A stretch of 64,000 nucleotides of DNA. Origin: Candidatus Omnitrophota bacterium (lineage in GTDB: Bacteria > Omnitrophota > Omnitrophia > Omnitrophales > JACQLI01). Made by a program: the position numbers and the translations under genes. Under the pieces are notes generated by a model, which was given only the letters and a program-made list of their open reading frames with translations, ran no database searches and had not been told where the DNA came from. Shown here piece after piece: positions 49,229 through 63,890 of the stretch (within the stretch, counting starts at the first letter, position 1; every line of letters begins with the position of its first letter). Where the stretch lies: contig JACPCP010000015.1 in NCBI GenBank assembly GCA_016179745.1, forward strand, positions 45,608 to 109,607, given 5' to 3'.

Positions 49229-49296
49229 TACTTTACTCGTTGTCTCAAAGCTCTTATGAATCAAGCTATCCTGGTCAGGAGTTCCGTCTCCCGGTA

Positions 49297-52200
49297 ATGG
49301 AAGTAAAACCCCGGCGGAGTCAGAAGGGCTTTTACTTTAGACTCACCACCTGGGCTGTTCTCATCACCTTCTCAACCCTCCAGATCGCCTGGGCCCAGGG
49401 GCCCGAAGCCCTCAAGCCGGCTGAAACGATCCGCCAAGCCCCCATCGATCCAAAATCCATTTCTCAGGAAGACTGGAAATCATCTTCCCAGACCGCAAAA
49501 CCGGTGGATCAAAAAACTTCGACCGACTACCTCATGGATGATTTCCCCCTGACTCGGGCGGACAAACAAGAGACCGAAGGCGAAGCGGCCGAGAAACGTG
49601 CCTTGACCCGCCAGACGATCCAATGGGAGAAACCCAGGATCACCTATTATTCCAACGGCAGGAAGAAGTCCTGGCAAAGACGGGGCACTGAGAATGGAAA
49701 GCTGAAGAGGCGTGAACTGAAGACCTATGACCCCCAGGGCAAAATCACCCGGGACCTCGACGAGACCTACCACCCGAATGGAAGGGTCGCAATCTCAGAT
49801 GACCGCCGTTACCTTGCAGGCGTCCTTGACAAACGCACCTACAAGACCTTTAACACACAAGGCCGGTTGACCCGCACTCTTTTCCGGGACTATGACCCCC
49901 ATGAAAAGCTCAGGATCTTGGACGACACCTCTTACACCAATGGCCACAAGACCGGGCGCCACCGGAATGAATACGACAGTTCCGGGATTCGCCTGAGTTA
50001 CCTTCGGGAAACCTTTTTCTCCGGAGAGAGCCTTAAAACTTCGGATAGTTACCGCTATTCGAGTGGCCGGCTCACCCAGAGGACCTACCAGGAACGAGAT
50101 GCTTCAGGAAATCAAATCGTCTCTCAATCCCGCGATTACACCGCCCCCCTCTACACGAATCTTCGGGATTTCGTATTCGAATACGCTGTAGACGGTTCCC
50201 CCTACACAGAGTCTTTCTCATTTACCGCCGAGGGCTCCACCCGGTTCCAGACGACAAAGGCCGGATACCTTGGGGCCGAAGTCAAGCTCGATATTGAAAT
50301 CATCTTTGATGAGACCCCGCCCGGAGCGGGTTCGGTGGCCCTCAGTGGCAATGCCGTTTACTCTCGGTCGGCTTCCGTAAGCCTTACTCTTGAGGTTGAT
50401 GACAACTGGACCACCGATGCCAATATCCAAATGGCCTTCTCCCAGAATGGAGGACAGACCTTTGGCGCCTTCGAAGCCTTCAACACCCAGAAGACACTCG
50501 CTCTTGAAGGCAGTGACGGCACCAAAGAAGTCATCGTCCGTTTCAAAGACGAAGCCGGCAACACCCTCGATGCCACAGACACGATTCACCTCGACCGCGC
50601 AATTCCTACCGGCAGCATCAATATCAATTCGGGGTCTTCTTACACAACCTCCACGGCCGTCACCCTAAATCTGGCTGCCCAGGACTCGGGCTCTGGCATT
50701 GATAAGATGAGTTTCTCCCAGGACAATACGGCTTGGACCGCCCCCGAGGCCTACAACGCCACGAAGAATTTCACTCTTCCTTCAGGAGACGGAACCAAGA
50801 CCCTTCGTGTGAAGTTTTACGATAAAGCCGGAAACGAGAGTCAGGTTTATTCCAAGTCCATCACTTTGGATTCAACCCTTCCTGACGGCTCCATCACAAT
50901 CAATAACAGTAATCTCTACACTTCCTCTCCTACGGTGACTCTTGCCTTGAGCGCCAACGATCCCACTTCAGGGGTTGCCGATATGCGTTTCTCAAACAAT
51001 TTCGGTTTCCAGTGGTCCGACTGGGAGCCTTTTGGCACAAGAAAGGATTGGACCCTTTCCTCTACCAATGGAGAAAGATGGGTTGCTTACGAGGTTCGCG
51101 ATTGGGCCGGCAATATCGCCAGGCTCTATGACTCCATCATCCTAGATACCCTTGCTCCCACTGGCTCCCTCAATATCAATTCAGGGGCCGTTTACACTGG
51201 TACTCCCACCGTGACCTTAAATCTTTCAGCCCAAGACTCGGGTTCCGGGATCGATAAGGTAAGTTTCTCTCAAGACAATACAACCTGGACTGCTCCCGAG
51301 GTCTACAACTCCACAAAGACCTTTACCCTTCCCTCAGGAGACGGGAATAAAACCGTCTACCTCAAGTATTACGACAAGGCAGGGAATGTAAGTGCGGTCT
51401 ATTCCAAATCCATTATTCTGGATACCCTTCCGCCCTCAGGCACGGTGCGGGTCAAGAATAGCGTTCAGTTTGTCAATCAGCGTTTCATTGATCTGGAATT
51501 CTCTGCCAGTGATGCAGGGTCAGGACTTGATTGGGTGAGGGTGTCGAATGACAACTCCACCCTGACCGAGATCCCCTACACGACCCTGGTGCCCGGCTGG
51601 GCTCTCTTGGAACCCGATGGCGTCAAAACCATCTACGTGCAATTTAAGGACAAATTCGGCCGCTGGTCGAGCCTTGTGACGACGACCGTCACATTGGACC
51701 GGGTGAAACCAGGGGTTTCCGCTGCGATCAGCTCAGGAAAGACTTACTCCAATTCGAGCCCGGTCATCGTAAATTTGCTAGCCACAGATGACCGAAGCGC
51801 CGGGACCAAACTACAGATGAGATTTGCAGTCGATGGCACAGCGGAAGGAAGTTTCAATGCCTGGGAGTCTTTGGGATCCCAGAAATCAATCAAGCTTCCA
51901 GAGGTTGACGGCAGCCACACGGTTTTCGCGGAGGTGAGGGATGAAGCCGGGAACATCAACCAAGCCTCAGTTTCCATCACTCTGGACCGGACGGCTCCGA
52001 CCGGTGGAGTCAAAATCAACAACGGGGCAGACCGAACGGGATTGAGAAAGGTCACGCTGACCCTGGATGCCCAGGATGCCTCGACCCAGGTGGAGAAGAT
52101 GCGGATTTCAGAAGACGGCGGGGCGAGCTGGACCCCCTGGCAGGATTTTTCAAACCAGATTGACTGGACTTTCGGGGGGCTTGAAGGGACGAGGGAAATC

Positions 52201-55200
52201 AGGGTCGAAGTAGGGGATTCGGCCGGGAATACCGCAACCTTCTCGGACACCATCGAACTCAACACTTCCATACCCCAGATCGCATTCACCTCCCCCTCCT
52301 CGACGGGTGATTCTCTTTACACCCTCCGCTACAAAGTGGATGGGGTGGAGCGAAGCGAAACCTGGCGTCTCGCCCCGGGGGCGAATCCACTTTTGGTGCG
52401 TGTCTCAGAGGATGGAAGACCACCGGCCTTTGCGAAGTTCACCGTGACACTCAATCAGTCGGAGCCCGCCCGTCCTTTGATGCCGAATGCTCCAACGCTG
52501 GCGGAAGACCTCATTTCAGTGACGACGGAGGGGGGGTTGGTTCTTAAATATGATAATAGCGTCCTCGTGGCCATGGAGAAACCCGGGGAGTATCAACTTT
52601 ATCTGCCGGAAGTGGATGGCAGCGGGAATCTCACAGGCGGATTAGTCCGATTTTCCGAAGGAGGTGAAATCTACTATGGGGACGGAAAAGTCGTTTGGCG
52701 CAAGGACCCTCAACAAAACACCTACTATTACAATCCCGACGGTTCTGTGCGGGAAGTGGCCGGACCGGAGGGACAAAGAAGTGTTTTCTCCTATCGCTTG
52801 GATTCCGAAAATGGCAAGGTCATGGAGACCCTTGTCTCCTCTTCAAAAGACACGAGCCTTTACGATGCCACGGGCCGCCTTCTACTAACCTTGAAAATCA
52901 ATGGGGACGTGGTTCATTACGACGGAGGAATCCTGGATTCAGTTGAGCGAAAAGGTACGGGCGAGGTCCTTCATTACGGCCGCACTGATGACCCCAAGAC
53001 GGGCGAAGTGACCGTGAGTGTTACGGGCTCCGCGACCCCCTTTCAAGAATACCCCTCGAGAGTCCGCTACGACCGCGAGGGCCAAATTCTCGAGGTGGTC
53101 GAGCCGGACGGGACTCAGATAAATTTTAAAGACGGCCTTCCAACCGAAAAAATCGAATTCATTGAAGGCGAAGTCCGTAAAACAAGCTATCAATATAAGA
53201 CGAATCCCCTTGAGGATCTTATCGGTCTCCAGATCTCAGGGACTCAATTGAAGCGGAGCTTCGACGCCCAAGGCAGACTCGGTGCGCTTGAAACCGACGG
53301 CGTTGAATTAAAAATTTCGGGGAACCTGGTGGAATCTCTGACCCTTCTTGAGGGAAGTGAAGGAGGATTTCCCTCGGGCACCACTGTTCGCTACGAAGAG
53401 CGGAATTCGCTCAAGCGGGCCCTTGTCAGTTATCCCGAGCCGGATGCAAGAAAATTAACCTACGAGGTAGAGGAAGGCGGGGATCGGTACACACTTCGTG
53501 AAATCCAGTTGCCAGATGGGACGATTCAGCGGTTTCGTCCGAACGGCAGCCTGGGATCCCTCGAGACTTCGGACGGAAGAATTTATGAATACGAGGCGGC
53601 GCCCGGCGGCGGGCGGTCCTTTTTGAAGGAATGGCGGCTTGCGGACGGCCGCAGGCTTTACTTCAAAAAGAAAAACCCGGATGCCCCGCTTCAATTATTC
53701 CTTGTCGAATTCCCGGATGGGCGGAGGATCGAAAATATCACATTCGACCCGGAGGGGCGCCTCAACCAGGCCGACGAGCGGGTCCCTGAGCGAGGGGCCG
53801 TTTCCTCACATGTGGACCACTATGAATCCGGCCGGCTTGTGAAGCGAAGTTTCCCCGATACGTCCGAGCTCCTTTTTAATGAGGACGGTATTTTTTATTC
53901 CTATCGTGATCCCCGAGGCGAAACCTACCAGGTTCGTGAGGAGAAAGGGCCCCAAAACGAGACGACCGGGTTCCGATTTGAAGGGTCCCGGGAGACGGTT
54001 GTCTATTCCCGGGAAGGCGTTCTGACCCGTTACCTCTCAAACGGGGTTTCATTTGAATTTGACCGGGAAGGAAAGGTTGCTTGGGCCAAGACTGTTTTCG
54101 GAGAAATCCAAAACCCCCTTTGGAATGAGGCCCAGGAACTCATTAGCGGCAGGGTCAGCCTGGCCGATGGATCTCGATATTTCCTGGAGGGTGGAAAGAT
54201 TGCCCGAATTCTTCGGTCCGACGGCTTGGAGATTACTTATACGGGGGACCGTGCCGCCCGGCTTGTCAAAGAGGATACGACACTTTTGCTGGAATATATC
54301 ACTGAGAACACGGGCTTGCTTAAGGGGGCTTTTGTCAGATACGAGACAGAAGGGGGACTTACGAGCGACGGCCTGATTAATTTTCTCATCCGCCCCGAAC
54401 GTGCCGGCGAGGCCGGAGAGGTTTTTGACGCACCGCTTGAAAATCTACTGACCTCCGGGAAAAGCCGGACAAGTGTGGCTGCCGTCCACCGGGTCCCTCT
54501 TGCCCTGGGAGTGGTCGAGCGAGGCAGTGCTTCAAACGGAGGTTGGTGGTTCGAAGTGATATTTGATTCTGCCGAAGTTTCGGAGGGACTTACACCGACC
54601 CTGAGTTTGGCGCCCAACCCTTTTCTCAATCACATGAATCTGGGCTACCAGATTTCGGAATCCGCCTCCGAGCCCCTCAATGATTTGATAAACTTTGGCA
54701 TTGCGGGCAACTTTGTGCTCAATGGCGGCCGGGTTCCGCTTGGGGCCGCCAGCATCGGGTCGAGAAAGGGTTTTCCGCTTAATTATGACGTCTCCCCTCC
54801 AGGAAGCTCAGTGGGTTTTTATGTGTCTTACGATGCGGATTGGATTGAAGGAATCGAAACACGGGATTTCTCAGGTTTGGGAGAGGTTGTTTTAAAAACG
54901 AAGGGGGAACTTGGGACGGTTTTGACGCTTGAGCTGACAGACCGTGAAAACCGACGAAGCCGGATCTTTTTGCGTGGGATTGACAACAGCGAGCGCTTTT
55001 TTAATCTGGATTTTTCCCTTTTTCAAGGTGTTGACATCACTCACATCAAATCGGTCAGCTATATCCTGGAAGGCGACCGGCAGCTTGTAAAGACCGGAAC
55101 GCTGGATATCCAATGGGGCAGCCCTTTCGTTGCTTTATCTCCGCAACCAGAATTGGATTCGACAAGCGGAGTCGAATTGCCGCAATTTCAATGGCTTCAC

Positions 55201-58200
55201 GTAGTGCCCCAAAAGTATCCTGCCTATCCCCAGGGTGTCTCGGATAAATTCGTAACCACTCGATCGTCCGATTCCGAGATGGAATTTCATTTCGAAGGGG
55301 CATCGGATTATTACACGGCTTCCGCCGTCTTTGATTACGATCTTGCGAATACGAAAGACGTGGTGGAATACAAGGACCTTTCAGCCTTTGCGGGTCTTCT
55401 GCTGGGAAGCGAGAGAGCGGTCGAAGGGATCAACTTTTTTTCGATTCAGGATGCACATGGGAACCGGGCCCGTGTGAGGTTGTTCGGCAACGCCGGGACC
55501 CCCAATTTTTATTTCTTGGATCTGGATAAGATGGGCATCGATCTCAGGCGGGTCCGTTCCCTGGCGTTTGTCTACAATGATCCAAAGGTGGAAGACGGAC
55601 GGGTATGGCTCCGTGGGATTCCCCGTGAGGGCCCCGTCCCCTTCCCAGCCGTAAATCCCGATACGGATGAGCTTGCCATTCTCGCCGACGAGACCGTGAC
55701 GGTGGCTGTGAACCCGGGCGAACTTGTCCGATCCGATTATCTTAGCGTGAGCATTCGGCCTCCTCCGGGCGTGGTTGATTCAAAGGCCGTGCTAACTCTC
55801 GGTGAGGCCGTCTATCGAACAGAAACCCTATCAGACGATTGGAGCCACCTGGTAATTCCCCTCGCCAAATTTTCCGGGGCGCAGGCCGATTCTCTTCAGA
55901 TTTCCTTTGAAGGAAGCACAAGAGAGGGAAGCTACTTGATCGACAATCTCGTTTTAATGCGTTTCCAGGATAATTCGGCATCAACCCTTTTGCCCAAACT
56001 CAGGGTGACAGCCGAATCCCTTTCGCAAGGGGAGAGAACTCACCTTCCGGATCTGGCGAAACTCTCAGCCTCTTTCGTCTCCGAGTTTTCCGGGCGCAAT
56101 GAAACACCGGCTCGGATCCATTCCGAACTCGGAGCCTTGACGAGTGTCGTGACCGACATTTTTTATGATTCCAATGGCCAGATCAAAGAGGTAAAGACCG
56201 GTGATGGAAAAACTCTCGTGATGGCCGAGGAAGGGCTCCAGCAGGCTTTGTTCAGTCAGGGAGTGACCGTTGATTACGGATCCGGCCCAGGAAACGAACC
56301 TCAATCCTTGACGGTTGCGGGCCCCGGAGGAAATCAAGCCCCTCTTTCGGCGAGCTATCAATACGGACGTATCCGGGAAGTGAGGCGTTCGGACGGCTCC
56401 CGCCTTCAATATGGATACGAATTCATAGACGGGGCCGAAATCACGGTCGTCAAGACACCGCTTGGGACGGAGCCTGAGACCTATGAGATCAAGCGCTATC
56501 ACCGAGATCCCGGGAACCCTTATCAGATCGGCCAGCTCTTGTCGGTCGAAGAACCCACCGGCCTTCTGACGGTCTATGAGTATGGAGCCGGGTCCGGAGG
56601 TCCCGAGGCGCCGCTTAAGCTAAGCCGGACTTATTACAAGGGGCGGTTGCGTTCGGAATTTAGTTACGAGTATCGGGAAGGCCGGACGTTTGTGACCGAT
56701 CAAGAGGGCACGGTCACGGAGTATGATTCTGATGGCCGACTTCGTTCCCACACGACGCCGGATGGTTTCCGCTACGAGCATCTCTTCGAAGATGAAAACT
56801 TTCGGGTGATTGACGGCCGAAGTTACCTTAACGGGAAACTCATCCGCCTTGAAACGGAGGGTTTCACCATTGAAGAAGCAGTGACCGACTCAGAAGGTTT
56901 CCTCACAGAGGCCCTGCTTCTTTACCAGGATGGTCACCGGACATTTTTCGTGAAGGGAGCCCCCTACCTGACCACCCGGGATGTTGGAGAAGCCACCTTC
57001 TTTGATCCGGCTAAGGACGGCGAAAACCCAGGCTTTCAAAACGAAATGTCCAATTTTCGGCTCGCTCAAACGCTCTGGAAGGGTGCCCCCAAGAGTCCAG
57101 CGGCAGAGATCCTGCCGGAAAAAGTTGAGGTGGTTCGGCTTGTTTCGAGGGAGTCGGACGAGATAAGCGCGGAATACCGCGAAGGGAGACTCGAGGACCT
57201 TCGGTTTAAGGAAGATGGAATGGAGGTGACGGGCCTTTCCTATGACCGAGACGGGGAGCTCGATGGAGCCCGGATCAAACTGGACGACGGAACCGGATTT
57301 CTGTTCCAAGAAGGGCTTCATGTTATCCGGAGCCGCTCAAATGAGGTCGTCGAGCGCCTCACCCCGTGGGATCCCCCCCTGGCCTACCGAAATGAATCCG
57401 AACGCTGGGAACGTTTAAAGATGCAGTCTGCGACTTTTGTCCGGAGCCCCGATGAGACCGGCCGCTCCAAGAAAACGGATCTCGGAATGGCCCTTTACGA
57501 TGAAACAGGCCGTATCCTTGAAATCCATTTGAGGGCGGAAGGAGTCATTCTAAGGGATTTCGAATTTAACGACCGGGGAAAACTGGTGCGGGCCAAAGTT
57601 TTTTCCGGAGGAGAGGAAACGACTGAATACCGCGAGGGTTTATCCCTTTCCTACCAGGGGGGCGACGGAAGGCCTGGGAAAGTCTTTTCCCTGTTTGACG
57701 AGGGCAACTTCCATTATGAATCGGCGAGGAGCCGTTGGAAAGTTTGGAAGGAAAAGATATCAGAGTATCTCCTGGACCCGGCTTTTGTGTTTGAGACCGA
57801 GCTCGATAGCGAGGGCATGATCCTCACCCTCACCAAAGCGAACCAATCCGTTTCAGTCTATGAAAAAGGAAAAGTTGACCAGGTTTTCGATCAGGAAGGA
57901 AGGCTCCTGATTACAAACCGGTACGACCCCCTCGAGGGAATGCTCATTTCCATCACGATGGTGGATGCCCGCAGGCGGCTTGAGGAAGACACCTTTGAGG
58001 CCCGGCGCGACCTCCGGAGGCAAAAGGTCCTGGCGCTTGAGAAATTGGCCCGCGATACGGATCTGGCCACGCAGGCGCTCCGGGACCAATTTGAGGGACC
58101 ACGGAAAATTCTTCTGGCTCAGCGCGCCAATGTGGAGTCACTTTTGGCGAACCTTGAGGCAACCAAAGTGCGCGGCAAGCAGGGGAAACGGGAGAAATCG

Positions 58201-61194
58201 GGCGCCTTGGATCAGATCCGGGGAGCGCTTCACCAGATCGAGAGCGCCCTTTCCGAACTCGACCGTAAGTATGCAGAAGCGATTGAATCCCTCTCCCAAA
58301 AAGCCGCAGAGGTTGCGAGCCAGATTGAGTCCGAGACTGGGCGGGCGCTCCAAAAGCTTGAAAAAACAAGGGCGGATTATCTGGCCGAAATCTTAAGGCA
58401 GGAGATCGCTCCGGTCCTGCATGACCTTTACCGGAATGCCCTGGGCCGTGACCCGGGCGAAGAAGAGACCCGCGAAGCCATCCGTGAAAAGGAGACCGGA
58501 ACCTTTGATTCCCACACCCTCCGGGCGAAACTCCTTAGAAGCGCGGAATACCAAGCCCGTCTTGACGAGGTGAATCGGATTCGAGAGGGAGTCCGAGAAA
58601 CACTCGCGCTCTACCTCGCGGGCCGTTATTCTGCGACGGACGAGCTTGGTCTCACTGAGAAGGAAGTGGTTTCACTCACTTCCGAGGAAGCTGACCAAAT
58701 TCTTCAGTGGCTGGATGGCCACGATCTTCATTTTGGACATTCGGCCTTTCTAGCGATGGAGAGTCTGCTCCGGGATGAGGGGAGAAATGTCTCCCTTCGG
58801 GAACTCGCTGCCCGGGCGATTTTAATCGACATCTTTTCCGGTGTGATCGGTCCTTTTGAGGAAGGGGAGCTTAAACTGAGCCTCTTTGCCTTGGAACGGA
58901 CCGCCCGATTTTACGGGGTAACGTTCTATCCCGCTGAAGTCAGTTATGAGGAACTGAGACAAATGGTTCTGGGCGGCAAGAAAGTAATGGTCCATCTGAA
59001 AGGGGATCACTACACGGTGATTACCGGCTTTGAGACGGTCTCGGAAACCCAAGTTCTTTGTCAGGACGGCCGGCCGGTCGAGATTCAGGTTCCGGTGGAA
59101 AAGGTGAAGACCCTGGAGCGGAATAAGGGGGCGGCGGGAGAAGAAGTGGTGCTCACGAAGGAGCAATTCCTCGATGCCTGGCTTCAGGGTGAAGGAGAAA
59201 AGGGATTTGTCCTCTCGGCCGTCGCGGCCGATCCCCGAGGGACCGGGACGGTTCTGACCCAGGAAAAGGCCCAATCCGTCCGGGGCGCCTTCTTTTTCTT
59301 TATTCCTTTTATCATCTCAGTCCTTGTTTCGGTCATTCAGGCGGTGATTGCGGTGGTGATTGCTGTGGTGGCCGCTGTGGTGGCTGCCGTGAGTGCCGTG
59401 ATCTCAGCCGTGGTCGGGGCCATCTCCAATTTGGTGACGACTCTGGGGCGGGGCCTGAGCTATTTGGCCCGGGGTTTCCAAGCGGTGGGGAAATTCCTTT
59501 TCGAAGGGGTTCGGGACGTAGGGAAACTTCTCTTAAAGGGCCTCCAGTTTGTCGGCTCCAGGCTTTACCAGGGATTTCAGGCGGTGGGCCATTTCCTGAA
59601 AGAAGCAGCTCTCAACTTGGGAGGAAAGCTCTGGCAGGGGATGGAGAAGATCGCTACGAAGCTCGCCCAGGGATTCACCAAGCTCTTCTCAAAGCAGGAC
59701 CTGACCAAACTTTTTTCAGTCAAGGGCGGGGCCACCAGCTTCAAGACAAGCCTCCTTAAGAATGCCCTGGGCTACGGCCTTAATTTCTCCCTTTCCAAGG
59801 GATTGGATTCGTTAGGGATTGATTTCCCAGGTCTCAATCTTCTTACCTCCTTTGTGACCGGAGGGATTGCCGGATTAACCGACAATGCCTCTTCCACGAG
59901 CTTCTTTACAAGTGCCCTCAAGAAGCTCACCCTCACGGGTCTTTCCACCCTGGCTCTCCACCTCGATCTCCCGCCTCCCATCGCCAACGCGATTTCTCTT
60001 GTTGGTGCCACCCTCGTAGGTGCCACGCTTGACCCTTCCGTTACTGTCCCCGAAGCCCTGAAAGACCTTGCCCCCACCCTTACCCGTGACTTGACCTTCC
60101 AGGGAATTCTTTCTGTCGGAGAAGCCATTGGTCTTGATCCCCGCTTATCAGCATTGATCGGCATTCCGATTAGGGCAACTGTTGGCAGTATCACAGGGAA
60201 TGCCTTGGGGGTGAAGGGGTACGAGGACCTCTTCGGAGAAATTACGAGTCAAACTATCGGTGGCCTTGTTTCTGTCGGCTCAAGCATTGGTTTGAATGCT
60301 GTTGGTGCCTCGCCCATTCTCCAAAGCTTCCTTCCAAGTTTCTTGGGTAACTTTGTTGCGGGTTTTGGTGGTACACCCGGTGGGTCTGATGCTATCCAAC
60401 GAGAAGGCGAAAACATCTTTAAGAAAATTACAGATGGCATTATTAAGTTTGGAAAGGGCCTTGCCTCCGCAGTCGGAAATGTCACATCCTTCGGCACAAA
60501 GGTTATTGAAGGTGGAGTTAACCTAGTGAAGCAGGGATTCGCTAAGGCGGTGGATTTCTTCAGCGGCGTATTTGACCGGCGGACGCAAGAAGCTTTGATC
60601 CAGGCTGGGGGCGGTAACATCGAGCAGGCCATCCTCAATAATGCAACGATTGTTAATGGAACCGCCAGAGCGTCCATCGATGGCGTTGAAATCGTTTGGG
60701 ATTCTGCGTTAGATAAGCTGACCTATACTGGTCCGGCGGGTGTAAGCGCGGCATTTTCCAAATTGGTTATGGACACAACTGGGAATTTCGGGATGGGGGA
60801 TTTTGCCTATGCTGAAACTACGCAAAACAGTGCAGTCATCAACTTAACTTCTAAAAAGTCTTACATTGAAGCTTCGGTTACGATGGACGATAAGCGCATT
60901 GTGGTTGAGTCCTTGGGCGGACGAGACCTTGTGAGCCGAACGTTGGGTCCATTTGTAAGGCCTACAGTTGTATTTGAGAGCACAGCGGCAGAGAATAATT
61001 ATCAAATTAAAGTAGATATGGAAAAAGGTGGTTTGACAGAAGTAAAAGCACCTTGGGAATATGTGACAGCAATTAAAGATTTCTTCACGCAGGGGGCTTT
61101 TAAGAGTATCGTTCAAGAGTATTTGAAAGACCAAATCGAGGATTTATTAACACCAATTTTTGAAAAGTTAGACGAAATTTTGAGAAGAAAATGA
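49297..61194 (+). CDS. Giant secreted/membrane-anchored multidomain protein (~3,965 aa)
   Basis: Single uninterrupted 11.9-kb ORF. The ATG at 49297 gives a signal peptide (KPRRSQK, then LTTWAVLITFSTLQIAWA|QG). Domain order:
- YD/MORN-like hairpin repeats (about 49640-50130, 52560-54400, 56150-57700)
- seven Ig-like repeats
- three CBM-like modules
- a coiled coil (about 57960-58400)
- a DUF4214-like motif (LYRNALGRDPGEEE)
- a C39/papain-like domain
- a TM hairpin
- 11-mer repeats
- a Gly/Leu/Ser-rich tail. Confidence 0.85.
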   Translation: MEVKPRRSQKGFYFRLTTWAVLITFSTLQIAWAQGPEALKPAETIRQAPIDPKSISQEDWKSSSQTAKPVDQKTSTDYLMDDFPLTRADKQETEGEAAEKRALTRQTIQWEKPRITYYSNGRKKSWQRRGTENGKLKRRELKTYDPQGKITRDLDETYHPNGRVAISDDRRYLAGVLDKRTYKTFNTQGRLTRTLFRDYDPHEKLRILDDTSYTNGHKTGRHRNEYDSSGIRLSYLRETFFSGESLKTSDSYRYSSGRLTQRTYQERDASGNQIVSQSRDYTAPLYTNLRDFVFEYAVDGSPYTESFSFTAEGSTRFQTTKAGYLGAEVKLDIEIIFDETPPGAGSVALSGNAVYSRSASVSLTLEVDDNWTTDANIQMAFSQNGGQTFGAFEAFNTQKTLALEGSDGTKEVIVRFKDEAGNTLDATDTIHLDRAIPTGSININSGSSYTTSTAVTLNLAAQDSGSGIDKMSFSQDNTAWTAPEAYNATKNFTLPSGDGTKTLRVKFYDKAGNESQVYSKSITLDSTLPDGSITINNSNLYTSSPTVTLALSANDPTSGVADMRFSNNFGFQWSDWEPFGTRKDWTLSSTNGERWVAYEVRDWAGNIARLYDSIILDTLAPTGSLNINSGAVYTGTPTVTLNLSAQDSGSGIDKVSFSQDNTTWTAPEVYNSTKTFTLPSGDGNKTVYLKYYDKAGNVSAVYSKSIILDTLPPSGTVRVKNSVQFVNQRFIDLEFSASDAGSGLDWVRVSNDNSTLTEIPYTTLVPGWALLEPDGVKTIYVQFKDKFGRWSSLVTTTVTLDRVKPGVSAAISSGKTYSNSSPVIVNLLATDDRSAGTKLQMRFAVDGTAEGSFNAWESLGSQKSIKLPEVDGSHTVFAEVRDEAGNINQASVSITLDRTAPTGGVKINNGADRTGLRKVTLTLDAQDASTQVEKMRISEDGGASWTPWQDFSNQIDWTFGGLEGTREIRVEVGDSAGNTATFSDTIELNTSIPQIAFTSPSSTGDSLYTLRYKVDGVERSETWRLAPGANPLLVRVSEDGRPPAFAKFTVTLNQSEPARPLMPNAPTLAEDLISVTTEGGLVLKYDNSVLVAMEKPGEYQLYLPEVDGSGNLTGGLVRFSEGGEIYYGDGKVVWRKDPQQNTYYYNPDGSVREVAGPEGQRSVFSYRLDSENGKVMETLVSSSKDTSLYDATGRLLLTLKINGDVVHYDGGILDSVERKGTGEVLHYGRTDDPKTGEVTVSVTGSATPFQEYPSRVRYDREGQILEVVEPDGTQINFKDGLPTEKIEFIEGEVRKTSYQYKTNPLEDLIGLQISGTQLKRSFDAQGRLGALETDGVELKISGNLVESLTLLEGSEGGFPSGTTVRYEERNSLKRALVSYPEPDARKLTYEVEEGGDRYTLREIQLPDGTIQRFRPNGSLGSLETSDGRIYEYEAAPGGGRSFLKEWRLADGRRLYFKKKNPDAPLQLFLVEFPDGRRIENITFDPEGRLNQADERVPERGAVSSHVDHYESGRLVKRSFPDTSELLFNEDGIFYSYRDPRGETYQVREEKGPQNETTGFRFEGSRETVVYSREGVLTRYLSNGVSFEFDREGKVAWAKTVFGEIQNPLWNEAQELISGRVSLADGSRYFLEGGKIARILRSDGLEITYTGDRAARLVKEDTTLLLEYITENTGLLKGAFVRYETEGGLTSDGLINFLIRPERAGEAGEVFDAPLENLLTSGKSRTSVAAVHRVPLALGVVERGSASNGGWWFEVIFDSAEVSEGLTPTLSLAPNPFLNHMNLGYQISESASEPLNDLINFGIAGNFVLNGGRVPLGAASIGSRKGFPLNYDVSPPGSSVGFYVSYDADWIEGIETRDFSGLGEVVLKTKGELGTVLTLELTDRENRRSRIFLRGIDNSERFFNLDFSLFQGVDITHIKSVSYILEGDRQLVKTGTLDIQWGSPFVALSPQPELDSTSGVELPQFQWLHVVPQKYPAYPQGVSDKFVTTRSSDSEMEFHFEGASDYYTASAVFDYDLANTKDVVEYKDLSAFAGLLLGSERAVEGINFFSIQDAHGNRARVRLFGNAGTPNFYFLDLDKMGIDLRRVRSLAFVYNDPKVEDGRVWLRGIPREGPVPFPAVNPDTDELAILADETVTVAVNPGELVRSDYLSVSIRPPPGVVDSKAVLTLGEAVYRTETLSDDWSHLVIPLAKFSGAQADSLQISFEGSTREGSYLIDNLVLMRFQDNSASTLLPKLRVTAESLSQGERTHLPDLAKLSASFVSEFSGRNETPARIHSELGALTSVVTDIFYDSNGQIKEVKTGDGKTLVMAEEGLQQALFSQGVTVDYGSGPGNEPQSLTVAGPGGNQAPLSASYQYGRIREVRRSDGSRLQYGYEFIDGAEITVVKTPLGTEPETYEIKRYHRDPGNPYQIGQLLSVEEPTGLLTVYEYGAGSGGPEAPLKLSRTYYKGRLRSEFSYEYREGRTFVTDQEGTVTEYDSDGRLRSHTTPDGFRYEHLFEDENFRVIDGRSYLNGKLIRLETEGFTIEEAVTDSEGFLTEALLLYQDGHRTFFVKGAPYLTTRDVGEATFFDPAKDGENPGFQNEMSNFRLAQTLWKGAPKSPAAEILPEKVEVVRLVSRESDEISAEYREGRLEDLRFKEDGMEVTGLSYDRDGELDGARIKLDDGTGFLFQEGLHVIRSRSNEVVERLTPWDPPLAYRNESERWERLKMQSATFVRSPDETGRSKKTDLGMALYDETGRILEIHLRAEGVILRDFEFNDRGKLVRAKVFSGGEETTEYREGLSLSYQGGDGRPGKVFSLFDEGNFHYESARSRWKVWKEKISEYLLDPAFVFETELDSEGMILTLTKANQSVSVYEKGKVDQVFDQEGRLLITNRYDPLEGMLISITMVDARRRLEEDTFEARRDLRRQKVLALEKLARDTDLATQALRDQFEGPRKILLAQRANVESLLANLEATKVRGKQGKREKSGALDQIRGALHQIESALSELDRKYAEAIESLSQKAAEVASQIESETGRALQKLEKTRADYLAEILRQEIAPVLHDLYRNALGRDPGEEETREAIREKETGTFDSHTLRAKLLRSAEYQARLDEVNRIREGVRETLALYLAGRYSATDELGLTEKEVVSLTSEEADQILQWLDGHDLHFGHSAFLAMESLLRDEGRNVSLRELAARAILIDIFSGVIGPFEEGELKLSLFALERTARFYGVTFYPAEVSYEELRQMVLGGKKVMVHLKGDHYTVITGFETVSETQVLCQDGRPVEIQVPVEKVKTLERNKGAAGEEVVLTKEQFLDAWLQGEGEKGFVLSAVAADPRGTGTVLTQEKAQSVRGAFFFFIPFIISVLVSVIQAVIAVVIAVVAAVVAAVSAVISAVVGAISNLVTTLGRGLSYLARGFQAVGKFLFEGVRDVGKLLLKGLQFVGSRLYQGFQAVGHFLKEAALNLGGKLWQGMEKIATKLAQGFTKLFSKQDLTKLFSVKGGATSFKTSLLKNALGYGLNFSLSKGLDSLGIDFPGLNLLTSFVTGGIAGLTDNASSTSFFTSALKKLTLTGLSTLALHLDLPPPIANAISLVGATLVGATLDPSVTVPEALKDLAPTLTRDLTFQGILSVGEAIGLDPRLSALIGIPIRATVGSITGNALGVKGYEDLFGEITSQTIGGLVSVGSSIGLNAVGASPILQSFLPSFLGNFVAGFGGTPGGSDAIQREGENIFKKITDGIIKFGKGLASAVGNVTSFGTKVIEGGVNLVKQGFAKAVDFFSGVFDRRTQEALIQAGGGNIEQAILNNATIVNGTARASIDGVEIVWDSALDKLTYTGPAGVSAAFSKLVMDTTGNFGMGDFAYAETTQNSAVINLTSKKSYIEASVTMDDKRIVVESLGGRDLVSRTLGPFVRPTVVFESTAAENNYQIKVDMEKGGLTEVKAPWEYVTAIKDFFTQGAFKSIVQEYLKDQIEDLLTPIFEKLDEILRRK
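50311..52263 (+). repeat. Seven tandem ~92-aa Ig-like domain repeats within the giant ORF
   Basis: Recurring pattern P(T/D/S)G.I.IN.G..YT....V.L.L.A.D..SG...M.FS......W...E.....K.W.L....G.K.V.V...D.AGN. Units 2 (50599-50874) and 4 (51151-51426) are about 75% identical at the aa level. Confidence 0.8.
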
Positions 61195-61736
61195 AAAAGA
61201 TTTTCAGTTTTCTTGCTATTGTATTTCTCCTTGTCATTACAGCTGTATTTGTATTTTCTGATTATCTCTCTGGTAATTTCACAAGTTATAAGATCCCTCT
61301 TGATTCTATGGCACCAACGATAAGCACCAACGACTTAATAGCAGTTGCTACTGGAGCATATGAAAAGACCCTACCAATGAGAGGTGATATTATCGTTTTT
61401 ATAACACCGTTTGATGAAAAAAAGAAATTCGCTAAAAGAATAGTTGGTTTGCCCGGTGATAAAGTTGAGATTAAAGAAGGTAAGGTTTACGTAAATGGGA
61501 AACGAATTCAATCTGATAGATTTCCAGATAATCGATATTATTTAACTCATGGAGATTGGGACTATGGGAATGAAGGCCAAATCATAGATGTGCCGGACAA
61601 TATGTATTATGTGTTGGGCGATAAGAGTGCGCATTCCAGTGATAGCAGGCAATGGGGATTTGTTCCCGCTAAAAACGTAATTGGTAAAGCAACAGTTGTT
61701 TATTGGCCGCCTTGGCGATGGAAATTTATAAAATAA
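61191..61736 (+). CDS. lepB: Type I signal peptidase (S26 family, short Gram-positive-like form)
   Basis: N-terminal TM, SMAPTI (Ser nucleophile box), GDIIVF, KRIVGLPGD (Lys box) and GDKSAHSSDSRQWGFV. ATGA overlap with the giant ORF stop. Confidence 0.88.
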   Translation: MKKIFSFLAIVFLLVITAVFVFSDYLSGNFTSYKIPLDSMAPTISTNDLIAVATGAYEKTLPMRGDIIVFITPFDEKKKFAKRIVGLPGDKVEIKEGKVYVNGKRIQSDRFPDNRYYLTHGDWDYGNEGQIIDVPDNMYYVLGDKSAHSSDSRQWGFVPAKNVIGKATVVYWPPWRWKFIK

Positions 61737-61759
61737 CGTCAAAAGTCGGAAAAAGAAAA

Positions 61760-61784
61760 AATGGCGTCACTTCCAAACGCCATT
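61760..61784 (-). terminator. Hairpin terminator oriented for the minus-strand small ORF
   Basis: AATGGCGT-9 nt-ACGCCATT. On the minus strand it is followed by TTTTTTCTTTTT. Confidence 0.55.
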
Positions 61785-62034
61785 ACGGGTACCACATTAC
61801 CGCCTCTCCAATGATCCGGGTCTTGTAAGGGTGAGCGAGTTTGACTTCCACTTCCCATCTTTGAAGTAAACCCACGATCCGATACCCGCTGCAGATCACC
61901 TCCAGAGTGGCTTTAATTTTCCCTTCCCAGTGCTTGAGGTAAAGCGTAAAATGCCCCGGCTCGCTGGAAAGGTTCCATTGCTTCCACGCTTGACCCGTTT
62001 CATCTAGGAATATCCCTGCGAGAAAGATCAACAA
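61783..62034 (-). CDS. Hypothetical small protein (~83 aa)
   Basis: This is the C-terminal part of ORF 61783-62223. I chose the TTG at 62034 because the upstream part would overlap dapF antisense. It has its own terminator. No family was recognised. Confidence 0.3.
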   Translation of the reverse strand: MLIFLAGIFLDETGQAWKQWNLSSEPGHFTLYLKHWEGKIKATLEVICSGYRIVGLLQRWEVEVKLAHPYKTRIIGEAVMWYP

Positions 62035-62444
62035 TGAAAGAAATTTCCTTTTATAAAATGGCGGCGTCGGGGAACGATTTTGTGGTGATCGACAACCGTG
62101 CCCGGAAAGTTTCAAATTTGCCGGCCCTGACCCGGGCCGTTTGCGACCGGCACCGGGGCGTGGGGGCTGACGGGGTCCTCTTGCTCGAACCCTTAGCGAA
62201 GGAAAAAGGGGACGGCCCCCCAAAAAGGGGACAGTCCCCTTTTTCTTCGAAGAAGGCCGATTTCCGGGTCCGGATTTTTAATTCGGACGGTTCGGAAGCG
62301 GAAGCCTGCGGCAACGGATTTCGCTGTGCGGCCTTGTTTGCGAAGGAAAAATTGGGGCTTCCCAACCGGCAGCAATTTGAGTCTCTCTCCGGAATGATTC
62401 ATAGTAAAAACGGTAGCATTTCCAAAAGTGCCGGGTTGAGGTAA
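62034..62444 (+). pseudogene. dapF: Diaminopimelate epimerase, 5' ~45% only. It is truncated at a RAYT element and carries an in-frame palindromic-element insertion.
   Basis: SGNDFVVID, RHRGVGADGVLLLEP and DFRVRIFNSDGSEAEACGNG (first catalytic Cys). Homology ends at about FESLSGMIH. The frame then runs into the left inverted repeat and stops. Confidence 0.8.
62203..62244 (+). repeat. Palindromic element copy inside dapF (AAAAAGGGGACGGCCCCCC, then the perfect palindrome AAAAAGGGGAC-A-GTCCCCTTTTT)
   Basis: Read directly. It translates in frame as EKGDGPPKRGQSPFS. Confidence 0.85.
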
Positions 62445-63179
62445 AATCTCCCCGTAGTTTTTTAACTCTCAATCTCACAGGGTTGTGGCGGACACGTAAA
62501 AATCAGGCACAGCCGATTCACCCTCCTTTGAAATATAAAAAGGAGGACCCCATGCCCCGCAAACCAAGGGAACTTGTCAATGAAGGAATCTACCACCTCT
62601 TCAACCGTGGTAATGACCGAAGGAACCTTTTTCAGGAGGCCCCGGATTTTCACCATTTTCTCAGCCTGCTTTTGCAAGCGGCAAAGAAATACCCTTCGGA
62701 GATCTTCCATTACTGTCTGATGACCAACCACTTTCACCTCCTGGTCCGGATTGCCCGGGGAGAAGATCTGCCTCCCTTCATGCATCTGGTCCAGCTCGGC
62801 TATGCCCGTTACTTCAAGAAGAAATACGGCTTCGTCGGTCATGTCTTCCAGGAAAGATTCCGCAGCCCACGTATCCCCGAAGAAAGCTACTACCTCCAGT
62901 GCGGCCGTTACATTGAGAGAAACCCCGTCTCAGCCCGCCTGGTCAAGGATCCCTGGGACTACCCCTATTCCAGCGCCCCTTTTTATGCCTCCGGAGAAAC
63001 CGATCCTTTAGTTACCCCGAATCTTTATTACGAGGGGATGGCGACCGACAGTGAAGAGCGGAGGCGGCGCTATCGGGAATTTCTCTCAGCCGAGGAGCCT
63101 TACGCCGGGATGATTGACAAGGCACTGGTTAAGGTCTGAACGTGGAAACTGTTGAACCCGGCACTTTTGGAAATGCTAC
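62413..63179 (+). mobile_element. RAYT/IS200-like unit: a Y1 transposase gene bracketed by perfect 25-bp inverted repeats (REP-like)
   Basis: The left repeat GTAGCATTTCCAAAAGTGCCGGGTT (62413-62437) is the exact reverse complement of 63155-63179. Each 25-mer can itself form a 6-bp hairpin. Confidence 0.8.
62552..63139 (+). CDS. REP-associated tyrosine transposase (Y1 HUH, IS200/IS605 TnpA-like)
   Basis: AGGAGG RBS 5 nt before the ATG at 62552. YHLFNRGNDRRNLF, CLMTNHFHLLV (the HUH motif is HFH), and GYARYFKKKYGFVGHVFQERFRS. Confidence 0.85.
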   Translation: MPRKPRELVNEGIYHLFNRGNDRRNLFQEAPDFHHFLSLLLQAAKKYPSEIFHYCLMTNHFHLLVRIARGEDLPPFMHLVQLGYARYFKKKYGFVGHVFQERFRSPRIPEESYYLQCGRYIERNPVSARLVKDPWDYPYSSAPFYASGETDPLVTPNLYYEGMATDSEERRRRYREFLSAEEPYAGMIDKALVKV

Positions 63180-63193
63180 GCTAAATCTAGGCG

Positions 63194-63373
63194 TTGAAAA
63201 ACAAGCCAACACAAATATCTGATTTTATTCCTCCTGAAGATAAGCTGTTGAGTGTTCGCCGTTCCACGGTCAATCCTGTTTCACCAAACGATCCGGAAGT
63301 TAATCAGTATGAACTTCTGACGGAGGGAGAGGAATTGTTAGAAGCGTGGTTCAAAAACAGGAGAAATCTATGA
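63194..63373 (+). CDS. Hypothetical 59-aa protein (low-GC)
   Basis: TTG start, below the ORF-track cutoff. Reads MKNKPTQISDFIPPEDKLLSVRRSTVNPVSPNDPEVNQYELLTEGEELLEAWFKNRRNL. Its stop overlaps the next ATG (ATGA). Confidence 0.3.
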   Translation: MKNKPTQISDFIPPEDKLLSVRRSTVNPVSPNDPEVNQYELLTEGEELLEAWFKNRRNL

Positions 63374-63723
63374 TTAAGGATGTGAAGAACGAAGAAGACT
63401 TAGTAATTATTATCTCGGAAAAGGGACAAGCTTCTTTGCGACTCGGCGTAAAGGTTGCAGAGATTTTGAAATTTGAAGATTCGATAATCGTCAGAACGGC
63501 CGCTATCAGCAAGGAGAGGGCCCGCAACATCCACCGATACTCAGAAGACGGCACCAAAATCTGGACGGTGGAGGAGCCGGAAGGTGTCAAAGATCAGGCG
63601 AATGCTTTTACGGGATTAAGGCTGAATGAGAAAGACGGAATCATCGGATACACATGGGTGGGAACGAAGCATAGAATTGATTTTGCTACCGGCAAACTCC
63701 TCAGCAGCGAATTCACCAAATGA
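63370..63723 (+). CDS. Hypothetical 117-aa protein (low-GC)
   Basis: I preferred the ATG at 63370 (MIKDVKNEEDL...) over the GTG at 63346. No family was recognised. Confidence 0.45.
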   Translation: MIKDVKNEEDLVIIISEKGQASLRLGVKVAEILKFEDSIIVRTAAISKERARNIHRYSEDGTKIWTVEEPEGVKDQANAFTGLRLNEKDGIIGYTWVGTKHRIDFATGKLLSSEFTK

Positions 63724-63890
63724 AACTCTGGCATCTCGGGCTCCTCCTTACGATTGGAGCCAGCCTTGTGAATGGCCTCCTCATCCGCTTCGATATCACC
63801 GGCCTTCCCCGTGAATTCATGCGCCTCCTCATTCTTCTAGGTCTCGGAATCCTTGCCTTCAGCCTGATCCAAAAATTCAAGCGAAATTAA
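63720..63890 (+). CDS. Hypothetical 56-aa membrane protein (two hydrophobic helices)
   Basis: ATGA overlap with the previous gene. Sequence: MKLWHLGLLLTIGASLVNGLLIRFDITGLPREFMRLLILLGLGILAFSLIQKFKRN. Confidence 0.35.
   Translation: MKLWHLGLLLTIGASLVNGLLIRFDITGLPREFMRLLILLGLGILAFSLIQKFKRN

Follow-up and report, generated by a model that had tools for sequence, protein, structure and literature searches.

A probable TIRtron in an Omnitrophota contig: a short-tailed TIRYT gene between conserved terminal inverted repeats

Y1 transposases and the repeats that accompany them

Within the Y1/HUH transposase superfamily, TIRYTs are the branch that ranks second in size, and their repeats were previously thought to be heterogeneous. 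To our knowledge, none of these enzymes has been studied biochemically. TIRYTs, and the TIRtrons in which they reside, were defined by Di Nocera, De Gregorio and Rocco (2013, BMC Genomics 14:522; PMC3733652), and they constitute a RAYT-like branch of the HUH/Y1 proteins that corresponds to TnpAY1 subclass 2.1 (Quentin 2018, PMC6006769) and to RAYT group 1 of Bertels. Their repeats may make up moderately abundant families in the host genome, as single, dimeric or grouped copies, and many, though not all, TIRtron repeats share the motif GGGGWSAS, which is optional in the description (PMC3733652). Proteins of subclass 2.1 are recognized by NH[YF]H or NHVH, by FQ or W[EQ] and by YIELNP or Y[IV]HLNP, and they carry a long C-terminal extension with a helix-turn-helix (HTH)-like distal domain, at a median length of 238 aa (PMC6006769). 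By comparison, the REPs on either side of a REPtron gene fold as short hairpins of palindromic sequence that carry a 5' GT[AG]G, and the flanking 16-mers are highly over-represented across the genome, numbering from tens to hundreds (Nunvar 2010; Bertels and Rainey 2011). Elements of the IS200/IS605 family have a Y...Q motif, distinct subterminal hairpins, no terminal inverted repeats, often a tnpB gene and multiple copies. A further group, the IS110-family elements, is known to target REP sequences (Tobes and Pareja 2006; ISPpu9, PMC8450116).

The unit in the window and its transposase

The window, that is, the whole 64-kb stretch of DNA analysed here, probably contains a TIRtron of about 770 bp, in which one TIRYT gene lies between conserved terminal inverted repeats of about 30 bp. 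The TIRYT/TIRtron class is already known and little studied, and the window element belongs to it. It comprises the following features.

62413..62437, + strand: left terminal inverted repeat (TIR-L), the exact 25-mer GTAGCATTTCCAAAAGTGCCGGGTT; family motif at 62410-62439, position weight matrix (PWM) score 43.0
62552..63139, + strand: TIRYT-type Y1/HUH tyrosine transposase gene, 195 aa; NCBI MBI2167363.1; Pfam Y1_Tnp, 44 bits
63155..63179, - strand: right terminal inverted repeat (TIR-R), the exact reverse complement of TIR-L; family motif at 63153-63182, PWM score 42.5

The PWM was made from related repeats, and its best score in shuffled windows was 14.5. An earlier note had reported an exact 25-bp inverted pair bracketing a HUH/Y1 gene of 195 aa; an exact search and a repeat search confirmed both the coordinates and the complementarity of the pair, which is longer than any other inverted repeat reported there (100% complementary, arms separated by 717 nt). 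With up to three mismatches allowed, no further copies of the 25-mer occurred in the 64-kb window, nor did any occur in 100 dinucleotide-preserving shuffles, and the ~4 kb downstream of the window likewise held no additional repeat copy. The gene is intact and starts at an ATG preceded by an AGGAGG ribosome-binding site. It begins 114 nt after TIR-L and its stop codon precedes TIR-R by 15 nt, where the note had given 115 and 16 nt. The junction running from the truncated dapF gene (dapF') through repeat, gene and repeat was recovered free of mismatches in three independent Logan assemblies and is therefore not an assembly artefact. TIR-L is overlapped by a promoter-like pair, a -35 TTTCCA at 62419 and a -10 TAAAAT at 62442-62447, which match the sigma-70 consensus at 9 of 12 positions, a consensus match only. 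The -10-like hexamer is poorly kept among relatives and the sigma-70 consensus may not be that of Omnitrophota, so this promoter is not relied on here. An Rfam scan of 61700-64000 returned only sub-threshold matches, all to a palindrome within dapF, and thus no known RNA in that interval.

The 195-aa protein carries the HUH motif N59-H60-F61-H62 and the tyrosine motif Y120-IERNP; H60, H62, Y120, N124 and P125 are invariant in an alignment of 39 homologues. The Pfam family matched is named "Transposase IS200 like", whereas no NCBIfam IS200 model matches, and the sole NCBIfam model to respond, NF047646 (REP_Tyr_transpos), scores 67.4 bits, below its cut-off of 80. A profile of the 39 homologues matched E. 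coli TnpA_REP (Messing 2012, PDB 4ER8) at E 1e-4 compared with 1.1 for ISDra2 TnpA, and a Foldseek search with the AF2 model (pLDDT 88.5) likewise placed 4ER8 first (E 1.4e-9), with IS608 and ISDra2 at about 5e-6. TnpA_REP is the closest match both among solved structures and among curated family models. These results, together with the Y...NP motif, bear out the earlier separation of the protein from canonical IS200/IS605 TnpA. With HUH motif and catalytic tyrosine intact and a predicted TnpA_REP-like fold, the window copy looks functional.

Similarity scores guided the choice between TIRYT and RAYT. Against the sequences of Di Nocera 2013, Additional file 5, phmmer gave 62-114 bits for nine published TIRYTs (gbm 2474, sml 1152, dau 2153, pfs 148A, rba 2408, sml 4509, pca 3049, gsu 2396 and aba 2776) and lower values for two more (aba 1552, 48 bits; aba 3477, 26 bits). 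The classical RAYTs eco b228 (E. coli b0228), sml 2816 (S. maltophilia) and pfs 4255 (P. fluorescens) reached only 10-15 bits, and the labels TIRYT and TIRtron are therefore used here rather than REPtron. Judged by these sequence comparisons, the protein is RAYT-like and groups with published TIRYTs, not with REP-associated RAYTs. At the level of motifs it carries the subclass 2.1 signature (NHFH, (HV)FQ(ERF) and YIERNP, conserved in alignment A1), and it shares with TIRYTs the Y...NP motif, the N-terminal MPRxxR...YH(V/L)xNRGN and the overall RAYT-like Y1/HUH make-up. It differs from typical members in being a short-tailed variant of 195 aa, without the distal HTH-like, RGRPRK-ending tail. 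The alignment to S. maltophilia 1152 spans residues 2-186. Alignments to TIRYTs of 216-238 aa stop between residues 142 and 186, with no counterpart of the distal tail. We found 811 homologues, mostly of exactly 195 aa and 55-72% identical. The clade of the window protein is hosted by Omnitrophota and Elusimicrobia, which sets it apart from TIRYTs as described. A family-alignment scan of a viral collection yielded a single relative, 28% identical (L024), and hence no phage link.

The repeats in homologous loci

Related flanking repeats were present in all 10 independent homologous loci, often in several copies per side, with a consensus close to CGGTACCATTTCCAAAAGTGCCGGGTTCA. Alignment of 30 distinct copies gave AAAnGGTACCATTTCCAAAAGTGCCGGGTTCA, and the core kept throughout the clade reads …TTCCAAAAGTGCCGGGTTCA. 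Sequence and layout of the repeat are kept across the 195-aa clade in both host phyla: the repeat-gene-repeat unit measures 660-860 bp and holds the Y1 gene alone in 10/10 loci, and the inner end of the right repeat, TGAACCCGG, adjoins or supplies the stop codon in most relatives. The arms within one element are identical or nearly so, while different elements differ from each other; perfect arms of 25-27 nt were seen in the window, L009, L011 and L014, and both arms of L015 have one 20-nt insert in common. Distinct Y1 subfamilies within the same loci carry their own, different repeats. As in TIRtrons, the gene is placed between long terminal inverted repeats and not between GTAG REPs, although the consensus, GGTACCATTTCCAAAAGTGCCGGGTTCA, departs from the GGGGWSAS of many TIRtrons.

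The earlier note had interpreted the repeats as REP-like units in a RAYT configuration, each able to form a small hairpin. The layout of a gene between inverted repeats was upheld, but the repeats are not palindromic REPs and the enzyme is a TIRYT rather than a classical RAYT. A hairpin, GCATTT-CCAA-AAGTGC, can indeed be drawn; its minimum free energy as ssDNA is -1.8 kcal/mol (z = +0.39), however, a stability matched or surpassed by 127 of 200 shuffled sequences. In pair counts across the 30 distinct repeats, compensatory changes were absent and a slid control paired to the same extent. The GTAG start is confined to the window copy and L005, other repeats reading GGTACC or GGAAC. The REP palindrome model was rejected on the folding against shuffles and the lack of covariation. 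An alternative outer stem, GGTAC/GTGCC, was discarded by eye in alignment A2, its pairing being interrupted in the window copies and in those of the GGAAC type. The repeats are instead terminal inverted repeats of conserved sequence.

A cognate REP/REPIN population had also been predicted. Relatives do carry REPIN- or MITE-like doublets and dispersed copies, whereas the window and its downstream ~4 kb contain the flanking pair only. The extra copies in relatives occur as tandem sets beside the gene, as gene-less inverted doublets and as solo copies. L025 has two gene-less doublets, at 17484-17561 and 18310-18391 (dG -34 and -32 kcal/mol), with related spacers, and L014 has one at 16590-16650; when the inverted copies pair, doublet stems reach 29 bp. 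Solo copies were found in L022, L025 and L019 and a gene-less cluster in L005. Repeat families, whether single, dimeric or grouped, were thus seen in L005, L014, L019, L021, L022 and L025, against two copies in the 64-kb window. In this mix of solo copies, dimers and clusters, the small repeat families of the relatives resemble those described for TIRYTs. A scan for exact 20-mers in GTDB representative genomes, a set without the source MAG, gave one chance match in a Rickettsiales coding sequence (L004), and an exact 22-mer scan of metagenomes gave one related contig (L005).

Evidence for movement of the whole unit comes from L006, where two complete units are 99.7% identical, with 2 internal differences in ~690 nt, and the flanks diverge about 10 nt outside the repeats. 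Since these ~10 nt are shared beyond each repeat, a precise local duplication could also account for the pair. Neither a target-site duplication nor a conserved flanking motif was found in nine units. Two identical IS110 copies in the same locus have each entered a repeat of the window's family, at one and the same position. They resemble the REP-targeting IS110 elements, the difference being that their target is a TIRYT repeat, of which they are parasites, and not a REP. Other transposases besides IS110 also lie near in L006.

Neighbouring genes, rearrangements and rival readings

The surroundings of the unit include three further features.

49240..61194, + strand: giant gene, 3984 aa, with Ig-like domains and an RHS repeat; upstream and co-oriented, context and not part of the element
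62034..62399, + strand: displaced 5' dapF fragment, codons 1-122, adjoining the outer side of TIR-L
62194..62250, no strand assigned: palindromic insert within the dapF fragment, carrying GGGGACAG; inverted repeat 62202-62220 / 62227-62245

The giant gene matches Pfam Big_3_2, Big_13, Big_7 and RHS_repeat (29.7 bits). A co-oriented giant YD/RHS-type gene lies upstream in 9 of 11 loci (the window and 8 of the 10 homologous loci), within ~2 kb in 8 of those 9 and usually with one small immunity-sized ORF between, whereas the genes downstream of the element are not conserved and two loci lie in housekeeping contexts. In the Rhs array of L019/L020, same-orientation repeat copies directly precede each of three orphan rhs fragments, one of which is cut by the element exactly after the Rhs core motif NLYTY, and up to three different TIRtron families share such arrays. 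The consulted papers on TIRYTs, TnpAY1 and giant genes do not mention that the element often follows a giant YD/RHS gene, and literature searches brought up no such report.

Truncated genes adjoin the outer repeat ends in four loci. In the window this gene is dapF, for which Pfam and TIGR00652 match profile positions 1-106 of 270 only; the called ORF continues through TIR-L to 62444. The earlier note had suggested looking for empty-site alleles of dapF; that gene was, however, not inactivated. The ORF duplicates residues 1-122: it is identical at 120 of 125 positions (96%) to the N-terminus of an intact 289-aa DapF, P0194 (MBI2167742.1), with identity ending at ...SGMI, and the intact gene lies on another contig of the same NCBI accession series, taken as the same MAG. 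No C-terminal dapF part lies downstream of the element, and the missing halves of the L019 rhs orphan and the L025 DUF4143 gene are likewise absent from the element's far side; a simple model of insertion into these genes was rejected on this ground. A search for an empty site through dapF homologues led to L023 as the nearest, which has a lysA-dapF context and whose contig diverges before the junction. The displaced duplicate at the left end may be the scar of a rearrangement caused by the element.

Several other readings of the unit were weighed against a TIRtron. It is unlikely that the gene is a domesticated, immobile host gene whose repeats serve as operator or regulatory sites, or as binding sites used only in trans, its position behind giant genes reflecting vertical inheritance or co-regulation. 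Such a role would suit the single copy in the window, the low copy number reported for group 1 RAYTs, the promoter-like site over TIR-L and the co-orientation with the giant gene in 9/9 cases, as well as the many homologues, whose shared length, identity and invariant catalytic residues indicate purifying selection. It is at odds with the two nearly identical units in L006, with flanking genes that are wholly different between loci, including the two housekeeping contexts, and with a position relative to shared neighbours that differs between the window and L014; further counter-evidence comes from the copied doublets, which lack a gene but keep their spacer, and from genes cut short where they meet a repeat. 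There is an even slimmer chance that the repeats delimit a MITE or a transposon of the DDE type, moved by an enzyme encoded elsewhere, with the Y1 gene as a passenger. Perfect terminal inverted repeats of 25-30 bp are typical of DDE elements, and IS110 and other transposases are near in L006, but the Y1 gene is alone inside every unit over 55-72% divergence between the proteins, the repeat sequence tracks the protein clade, other Y1 subfamilies of the same loci have their own repeats and target-site duplications are lacking. Moreover, IS110 has inserted into the repeat and does not use it as an end.

A classical REPtron, in which a RAYT gene would be flanked by GTAG-tagged palindromic REPs belonging to an abundant REP/REPIN population, is improbable. 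The window 25-mer begins with GTAG and permits a 6-bp hairpin, REP_Tyr_transpos is the only family model matched, TnpA_REP is the nearest structure, and the relatives show REPIN-like doublets; indeed, inverted cognate repeats that bracket the gene and hairpin-capable doublets elsewhere are features shared with REPtrons and REPINs (Nunvar 2010; Bertels and Rainey 2011; Ton-Hoang 2012). However, the window repeats are neither palindromic hairpins of the REP kind nor members of a GT[AG]G family, given that the hairpin folds no better than shuffles and lacks compensatory changes and that GTAG is replaced in other repeats, and the model score stays under its cut-off. Copies are also scarce in the DNA covered, with none beyond the pair in 64 kb and few in ~264 kb of related loci; scores against RAYTs are low, and at least one relative carries a duplicate of its whole gene-bearing unit. 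That the unit is an ordinary IS200/IS605-family insertion sequence with incidental inverted repeats is hardly credible. The Pfam family name and the significant fold matches to the IS608 and ISDra2 TnpA proteins would favour it, but none of the hallmarks of that family applies: IS200 models are silent, YIERNP replaces Y...Q, the window's ORF list includes no tnpB, the inverted repeats are kept in all homologous loci, and the profile prefers TnpA_REP to ISDra2.

Under the TIRtron reading, the enzyme would bind the repeats and cut and rejoin one DNA strand there. It has the HUH/Y1 catalytic core of the IS200/IS605 TnpA proteins (IS608, ISDra2), with which a cut-and-rejoin chemistry on ssDNA is presumed to be common, and by analogy with IS608 TnpA and E. 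coli TnpA_REP it may act through a 5'-phosphotyrosine intermediate. The whole unit would be moved in this way, repeat doublets would be moved in trans, and adjacent rearrangements would occasionally result. Given that no hairpin is conserved within individual repeats, the enzyme would probably recognize either the repeat by its sequence or the extended stem that arises in ssDNA once two inverted copies anneal. The short enzyme of 195 aa, the ~30-bp repeat kept over hundreds of homologues, the natural REPIN-like doublets and the signs of a recent whole-unit duplication offer an unusually clean system, so that what a Y1 enzyme recognizes without a hairpin becomes a directly testable question.

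We regard it as doubtful, yet worth stating, that this TIRYT clade is not a random selfish element but is functionally tied to giant YD/RHS loci of polymorphic-toxin-like type, its repeats delimiting orphan rhs-CT/immunity cassettes at which the Y1 enzyme cuts and joins ssDNA. Toxin cassettes and stray fragments such as the dapF piece would then be shuffled, captured or displaced in an HUH-driven, integron-like manner. Alternatively, these variable regions may simply be permissive sinks for mobile DNA. If the link is functional, it would add a new way in which polymorphic toxins diversify; if not, the outcome is a refinement of annotation, from "transposase" to TIRYT with its repeats, and for the annotated neighbour from "hypothetical protein" to a duplicated dapF fragment.

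The palindrome within that fragment belongs to a second repeat family, separate from the window TIRtron. Its GGGGACAG is the GGGGWSAS motif of other TIRYT repeats. The insert is absent from the related dapF of L023, whereas the intact DapF contains the same peptide insert, and a second copy lies at 37361-37383. L006 and L019 likewise have GGGGWSAS, flanking Y1 genes other than those of this clade.

The transposase and its family

The element occupies the following positions:

62413-62437, + strand: left terminal inverted repeat (TIR-L), GTAGCATTTCCAAAAGTGCCGGGTT
62552-63139: Y1/HUH transposase gene, ATG to stop, 195 aa (MBI2167363.1, from a Candidatus Omnitrophica metagenome-assembled genome (MAG), 121-kb contig)
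63155-63179, - strand: right terminal inverted repeat (TIR-R), the exact reverse complement of TIR-L

The perfect 25-bp inverted pair described in the earlier note was confirmed and is the longest inverted repeat of the region. A pattern search for GTAGCATTTCCAAAAGTGCCGGGTT allowing up to three mismatches returned these two sites only in the window and 0 matches in 100 dinucleotide-preserving shuffles, and shorter cores of the 25-mer led to the same two sites. One credible gene lies inside the arms, with AGGAGG ahead of its start, at a distance of 114 nt from the left repeat and 15 nt from the right. Because three independent Logan assemblies (L001-L003) match the window from 62342 onward, both repeats included, without a mismatch, the junctions are real.

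The encoded protein matches Pfam Y1_Tnp (44 bits); its sole NCBIfam match is REP_Tyr_transpos at 67.4 bits, which does not reach the cut-off of 80, and none of the NCBIfam IS200 models match. Homologues number 811 at E <= 1e-3, mostly of exactly 195 aa and 55-72% identity, and all named ones are from Omnitrophota or Elusimicrobia. The catalytic residues are intact: H60 and H62 (NHFH), Y120, N124 and P125 (YIERNP) do not vary among 39 aligned homologues. The profile of this alignment retrieves E. coli TnpA_REP (4ER8) at E 1e-4, compared with 1.1 for ISDra2 TnpA. The AlphaFold2 model (mean pLDDT 88.5) has a TnpA_REP-like fold, its best Foldseek match being 4ER8 (E 1.4e-9, TM-score 0.71 normalised to the target), with ISDra2, IS608 and IS200 TnpA ranking lower at ~5e-6 and weaker. 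Family models, profile search and structural match thus uphold the earlier view that the protein resembles a REP-associated tyrosine transposase (RAYT) and not IS200 TnpA.

RAYT-like genes within long TIRs unrelated to GTAG REPs, the same arrangement as here, were described by Di Nocera et al. 2013 (PMC3733652), who coined TIRYT for the proteins and TIRtron for the units; some of these TIRs form modest families whose copies are single, dimeric or clustered. Most TIRYTs fall into TnpAY1 subclass 2.1 (Bertels group 1), with the signature NH[YF]H / FQ / YIELNP (Quentin et al. 2018, PMC6006769); the window protein carries NHFH, FQ and YIERNP. Reference sequences were rebuilt from Additional file 5 of the Di Nocera 2013 paper and then scored. 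The window protein scored 62-114 bits against nine TIRYTs, with the entry labelled gbm 2474 the best at 114 bits and S. maltophilia 1152 at 100 bits over residues 2-186; the RAYTs E. coli b0228, S. maltophilia 2816 and P. fluorescens 4255 reached only 10-15 bits. The family profile gave the same ranking (91-161 bits for the nine TIRYTs versus 26-35 bits for the three RAYTs). The element is therefore a TIRtron and belongs to a known class that is still uncharacterised biochemically, although its protein is short and lacks the distal HTH-like tail of typical TIRYTs and subclass 2.1 members, and its TIRs lack the GGGGWSAS motif common in typical TIRtrons. Its TIR is conserved across the clade, and relatives carry REPIN-like derivatives (REPINs being inverted REP doublets).

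Conservation, copying and concerted evolution of the repeats

Ten independent loci encoding homologues were fetched, and in all ten, inverted copies of a related sequence bracket the Y1 gene. Thirty distinct repeat copies give a gap-free alignment whose consensus is AAAnGGTACCATTTCCAAAAGTGCCGGGTTCA (outer to inner end), with A8, C10, T13, T14, G21 and T22 invariant. A position weight matrix built from them scores the window copies at 43.0 and 42.5, against a best score of 14.5 in 20 shuffled windows, and no other site in the window reaches 16.

The earlier note had considered the repeats REP-like and capable of forming a small hairpin, a reading that the comparison does not support. The hairpin has little stability (-1.8 kcal/mol, z = +0.39), and folding was as good or better in 127 of 200 shuffles. 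Over the 30 repeats 70% of cells are paired, values that 500 of 500 shuffles reach, and a control with the partner shifted by -2 columns gives just as much pairing (71.7%); no compensatory change occurs at any hairpin pair. The 5' GTAG is confined to the window and to L005, a 1.4-kb metagenome contig, with GGTACC or GGAAC elsewhere. Given the weak hairpin, the lack of covariation and the restricted GTAG, the repeats are conserved terminal inverted repeats and not repetitive extragenic palindromes. We also observed a sigma-70-like promoter match at 62419-62447, with the -35 TTTCCA within TIR-L and the -10 TAAAAT just inside the element, and that the inner end of TIR-R (TGAACCCGG) provides or adjoins the Y1 stop codon in most relatives.

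In relatives, the repeat is also found in further, dispersed copies. Two inverted doublets in L025 (17484-17561 and 18310-18391, in opposite orientations) fold into 29-bp stems (-34 and -32 kcal/mol). The spacer of one is a diverged reverse complement of the other's, which shows that the whole doublet was copied in one piece, in REPIN-like fashion. Another lies in L014 (16590-16650), 6 kb away from the Y1 gene. These gene-less doublets, whose 29-bp hairpins are perfect or near-perfect, are REPIN/MITE-like derivatives. Solo copies occur in L022 and L025, six copies upstream of the Y1 gene in L021, and one-sided tandem sets of 2-4 copies in L011, L015 and L017. L005 holds the exact window 25-mer plus another three copies, all variants, and its 1.4 kb lack any Y1 gene of the window clade; a tandem 42-nt duplication there includes a variant repeat. 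One whole unit has been copied in L006, where two units show 2 internal differences in ~690 nt and flanks that part ~10 nt beyond the TIRs.

Within one element the two arms match completely or almost completely (a perfect 25-27 nt in the window, L009, L011 and L014), whereas TIRs of different elements vary in sequence. In L015, a ~20-nt insertion able to form a hairpin (CCCCCTGACGGGGG...) is shared by both gene-proximal arms (9901-9953 and 10590-10642), where it lies mid-repeat, a sign that the two ends evolve together or are copied from one another. From this shared insertion and the likeness within elements, it follows that the arms evolve in concert.

IS110-family elements are known to target REPs. 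L006 contains two 100%-identical IS110-family copies (6078-7420 and 10602-11944), each splitting a repeat between ATCGGAA and CACTTCC; one TIRtron is hit in its left repeat, the other in its right. Given this common insertion point, the IS110 element targets the TIRYT repeat.

Breakpoints at TIR ends and a proposed mechanism

Truncated genes adjoin the outer TIR end in four loci:

Window: dapF 5' fragment, adjoining the outer end of TIR-L
L019: rhs orphan, ending immediately behind ...GLNLYTY; at this point the main gene reads on VQNNPLSFRDPSGL
L005, 1080-1256, - strand: first 58 residues of a canonical IS200 TnpA (YHVVWIPKYRR...), ending at the outer end of the exact 25-mer copy
L025: DUF4143 gene without ~200 N-terminal codons

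Simple insertion would leave the missing half across the element, yet it is absent there in all three cases examined (dapF, the L019 orphan and the L025 gene), and these breakpoints are therefore rearrangement scars. No target-site duplication was seen at the units examined, nor is one expected from HUH chemistry.

The ORF at 62034-62444 (annotated 'hypothetical protein', HYU34_03830) matches the DapF model over positions 1-106 of 270 only. A sequence-cluster look-up located an intact DapF of 289 aa (MBI2167742.1, P0194) on a separate 78-kb contig of the same NCBI accession series, which was taken as the same MAG. The window ORF is identical to its N-terminus at 120 of 125 positions, the fragment duplicating residues 1-122 at 96% identity; identity ends at ...ESLSGMI (~nt 62399), 13 nt ahead of the 25-mer. 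In L023, a close relative with 95% nucleotide identity across the first 160 nt of dapF, the gene lies behind lysA, and the 64-kb window has no lysA. With an intact copy on the other contig and no lysA here, the working dapF was not disrupted by the element; what adjoins TIR-L is a second, displaced copy of the dapF 5' end.

A second repeat family was also observed in the window, palindromes with GGGGACAGTCCCC (the GGGGWSAS motif of other TIRYT repeats) at 62194-62250 and 37361-37383. They lie in-frame within the dapF fragment and folA (37159-37665; DHFR_1, 152 bits), lengthening the products by ~15-20 residues. The intact DapF, presumably functional, also contains this peptide insert, which is therefore tolerated. 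Similar repeats surround other Y1 genes (L006, 8554-8581 / 9224-9251; L019, 17451-17490 / 18081-18120).

By analogy with the established biochemistry of IS608/ISDra2 TnpA and E. coli TnpA_REP (PMC3479197, PMC6006769), the window enzyme would cut one DNA strand via Y120 with an HUH-bound metal and then rejoin it. Such a reaction would move the DNA lying between recognition sites, with the replication fork as the probable place. The TIRs would serve as binding and cleavage sites, recognised as sequence or as a stem paired between two copies; two inverted copies may pair in single-stranded DNA into a duplex-like substrate not available from a single copy. Dispersed copies, the L006 duplicate units, concerted arms and truncated genes at TIR ends argue that the TIRtron system is, or recently was, active; the window copy may be active.

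Giant YD/RHS neighbours

Upstream of the TIRtron, and co-oriented with it, nine of 11 independent loci (the window, at 49240-61194, and L006, L009, L011, L014, L015, L017, L019 and L021) have a gene for a giant protein of 2100 to over 4150 aa, lying within ~2 kb in eight; the typical order is giant gene, one small ORF (93-181 aa) and TIRtron. These giants are of the YD/RHS/FG-GAP type, several with SpvB, TcdB_toxin_midN, RHS_repeat or TEN_YD-shell domains. Those of L015 and L019 have the canonical Rhs core-end motif and C-terminal domains of 155 and 337 aa, and the window giant (3984 aa) has Ig-like domains and one RHS_repeat match. Since genes downstream of the TIRtron are unrelated among loci, the association is not simple synteny. 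Two loci, L022 and L025, depart from this pattern and sit in housekeeping contexts.

The Rhs array of L019 (8900-16300; same layout in L020) comprises a main rhs gene and three orphan fragments sharing a 300-nt core repeat, with a TIR directly ahead of each in the same orientation. Orphan 1 in L019 is cut by the TIRtron exactly after NLYTY of the core-end motif. Three TIRtron families are interspersed, their three Y1 genes each with its own repeats. The giant-gene literature examined makes no mention of Y1 genes, and no TIRYT-giant/Rhs link was found in the literature on TIRYT or Rhs/orphan/IS200. The link to giant YD/RHS loci is suggestive but unproven. That TIRtrons function in cassette shuffling at these loci seems rather improbable; alternatively, the element may prefer permissive variable regions.

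Separately, 61191-61736 encodes signal peptidase I (Peptidase_S26, 144 bits). This gene shares 4 nt (ATGA) with the end of the 3984-aa giant gene, across that gene's stop codon, an arrangement suggestive of translational coupling between the two.
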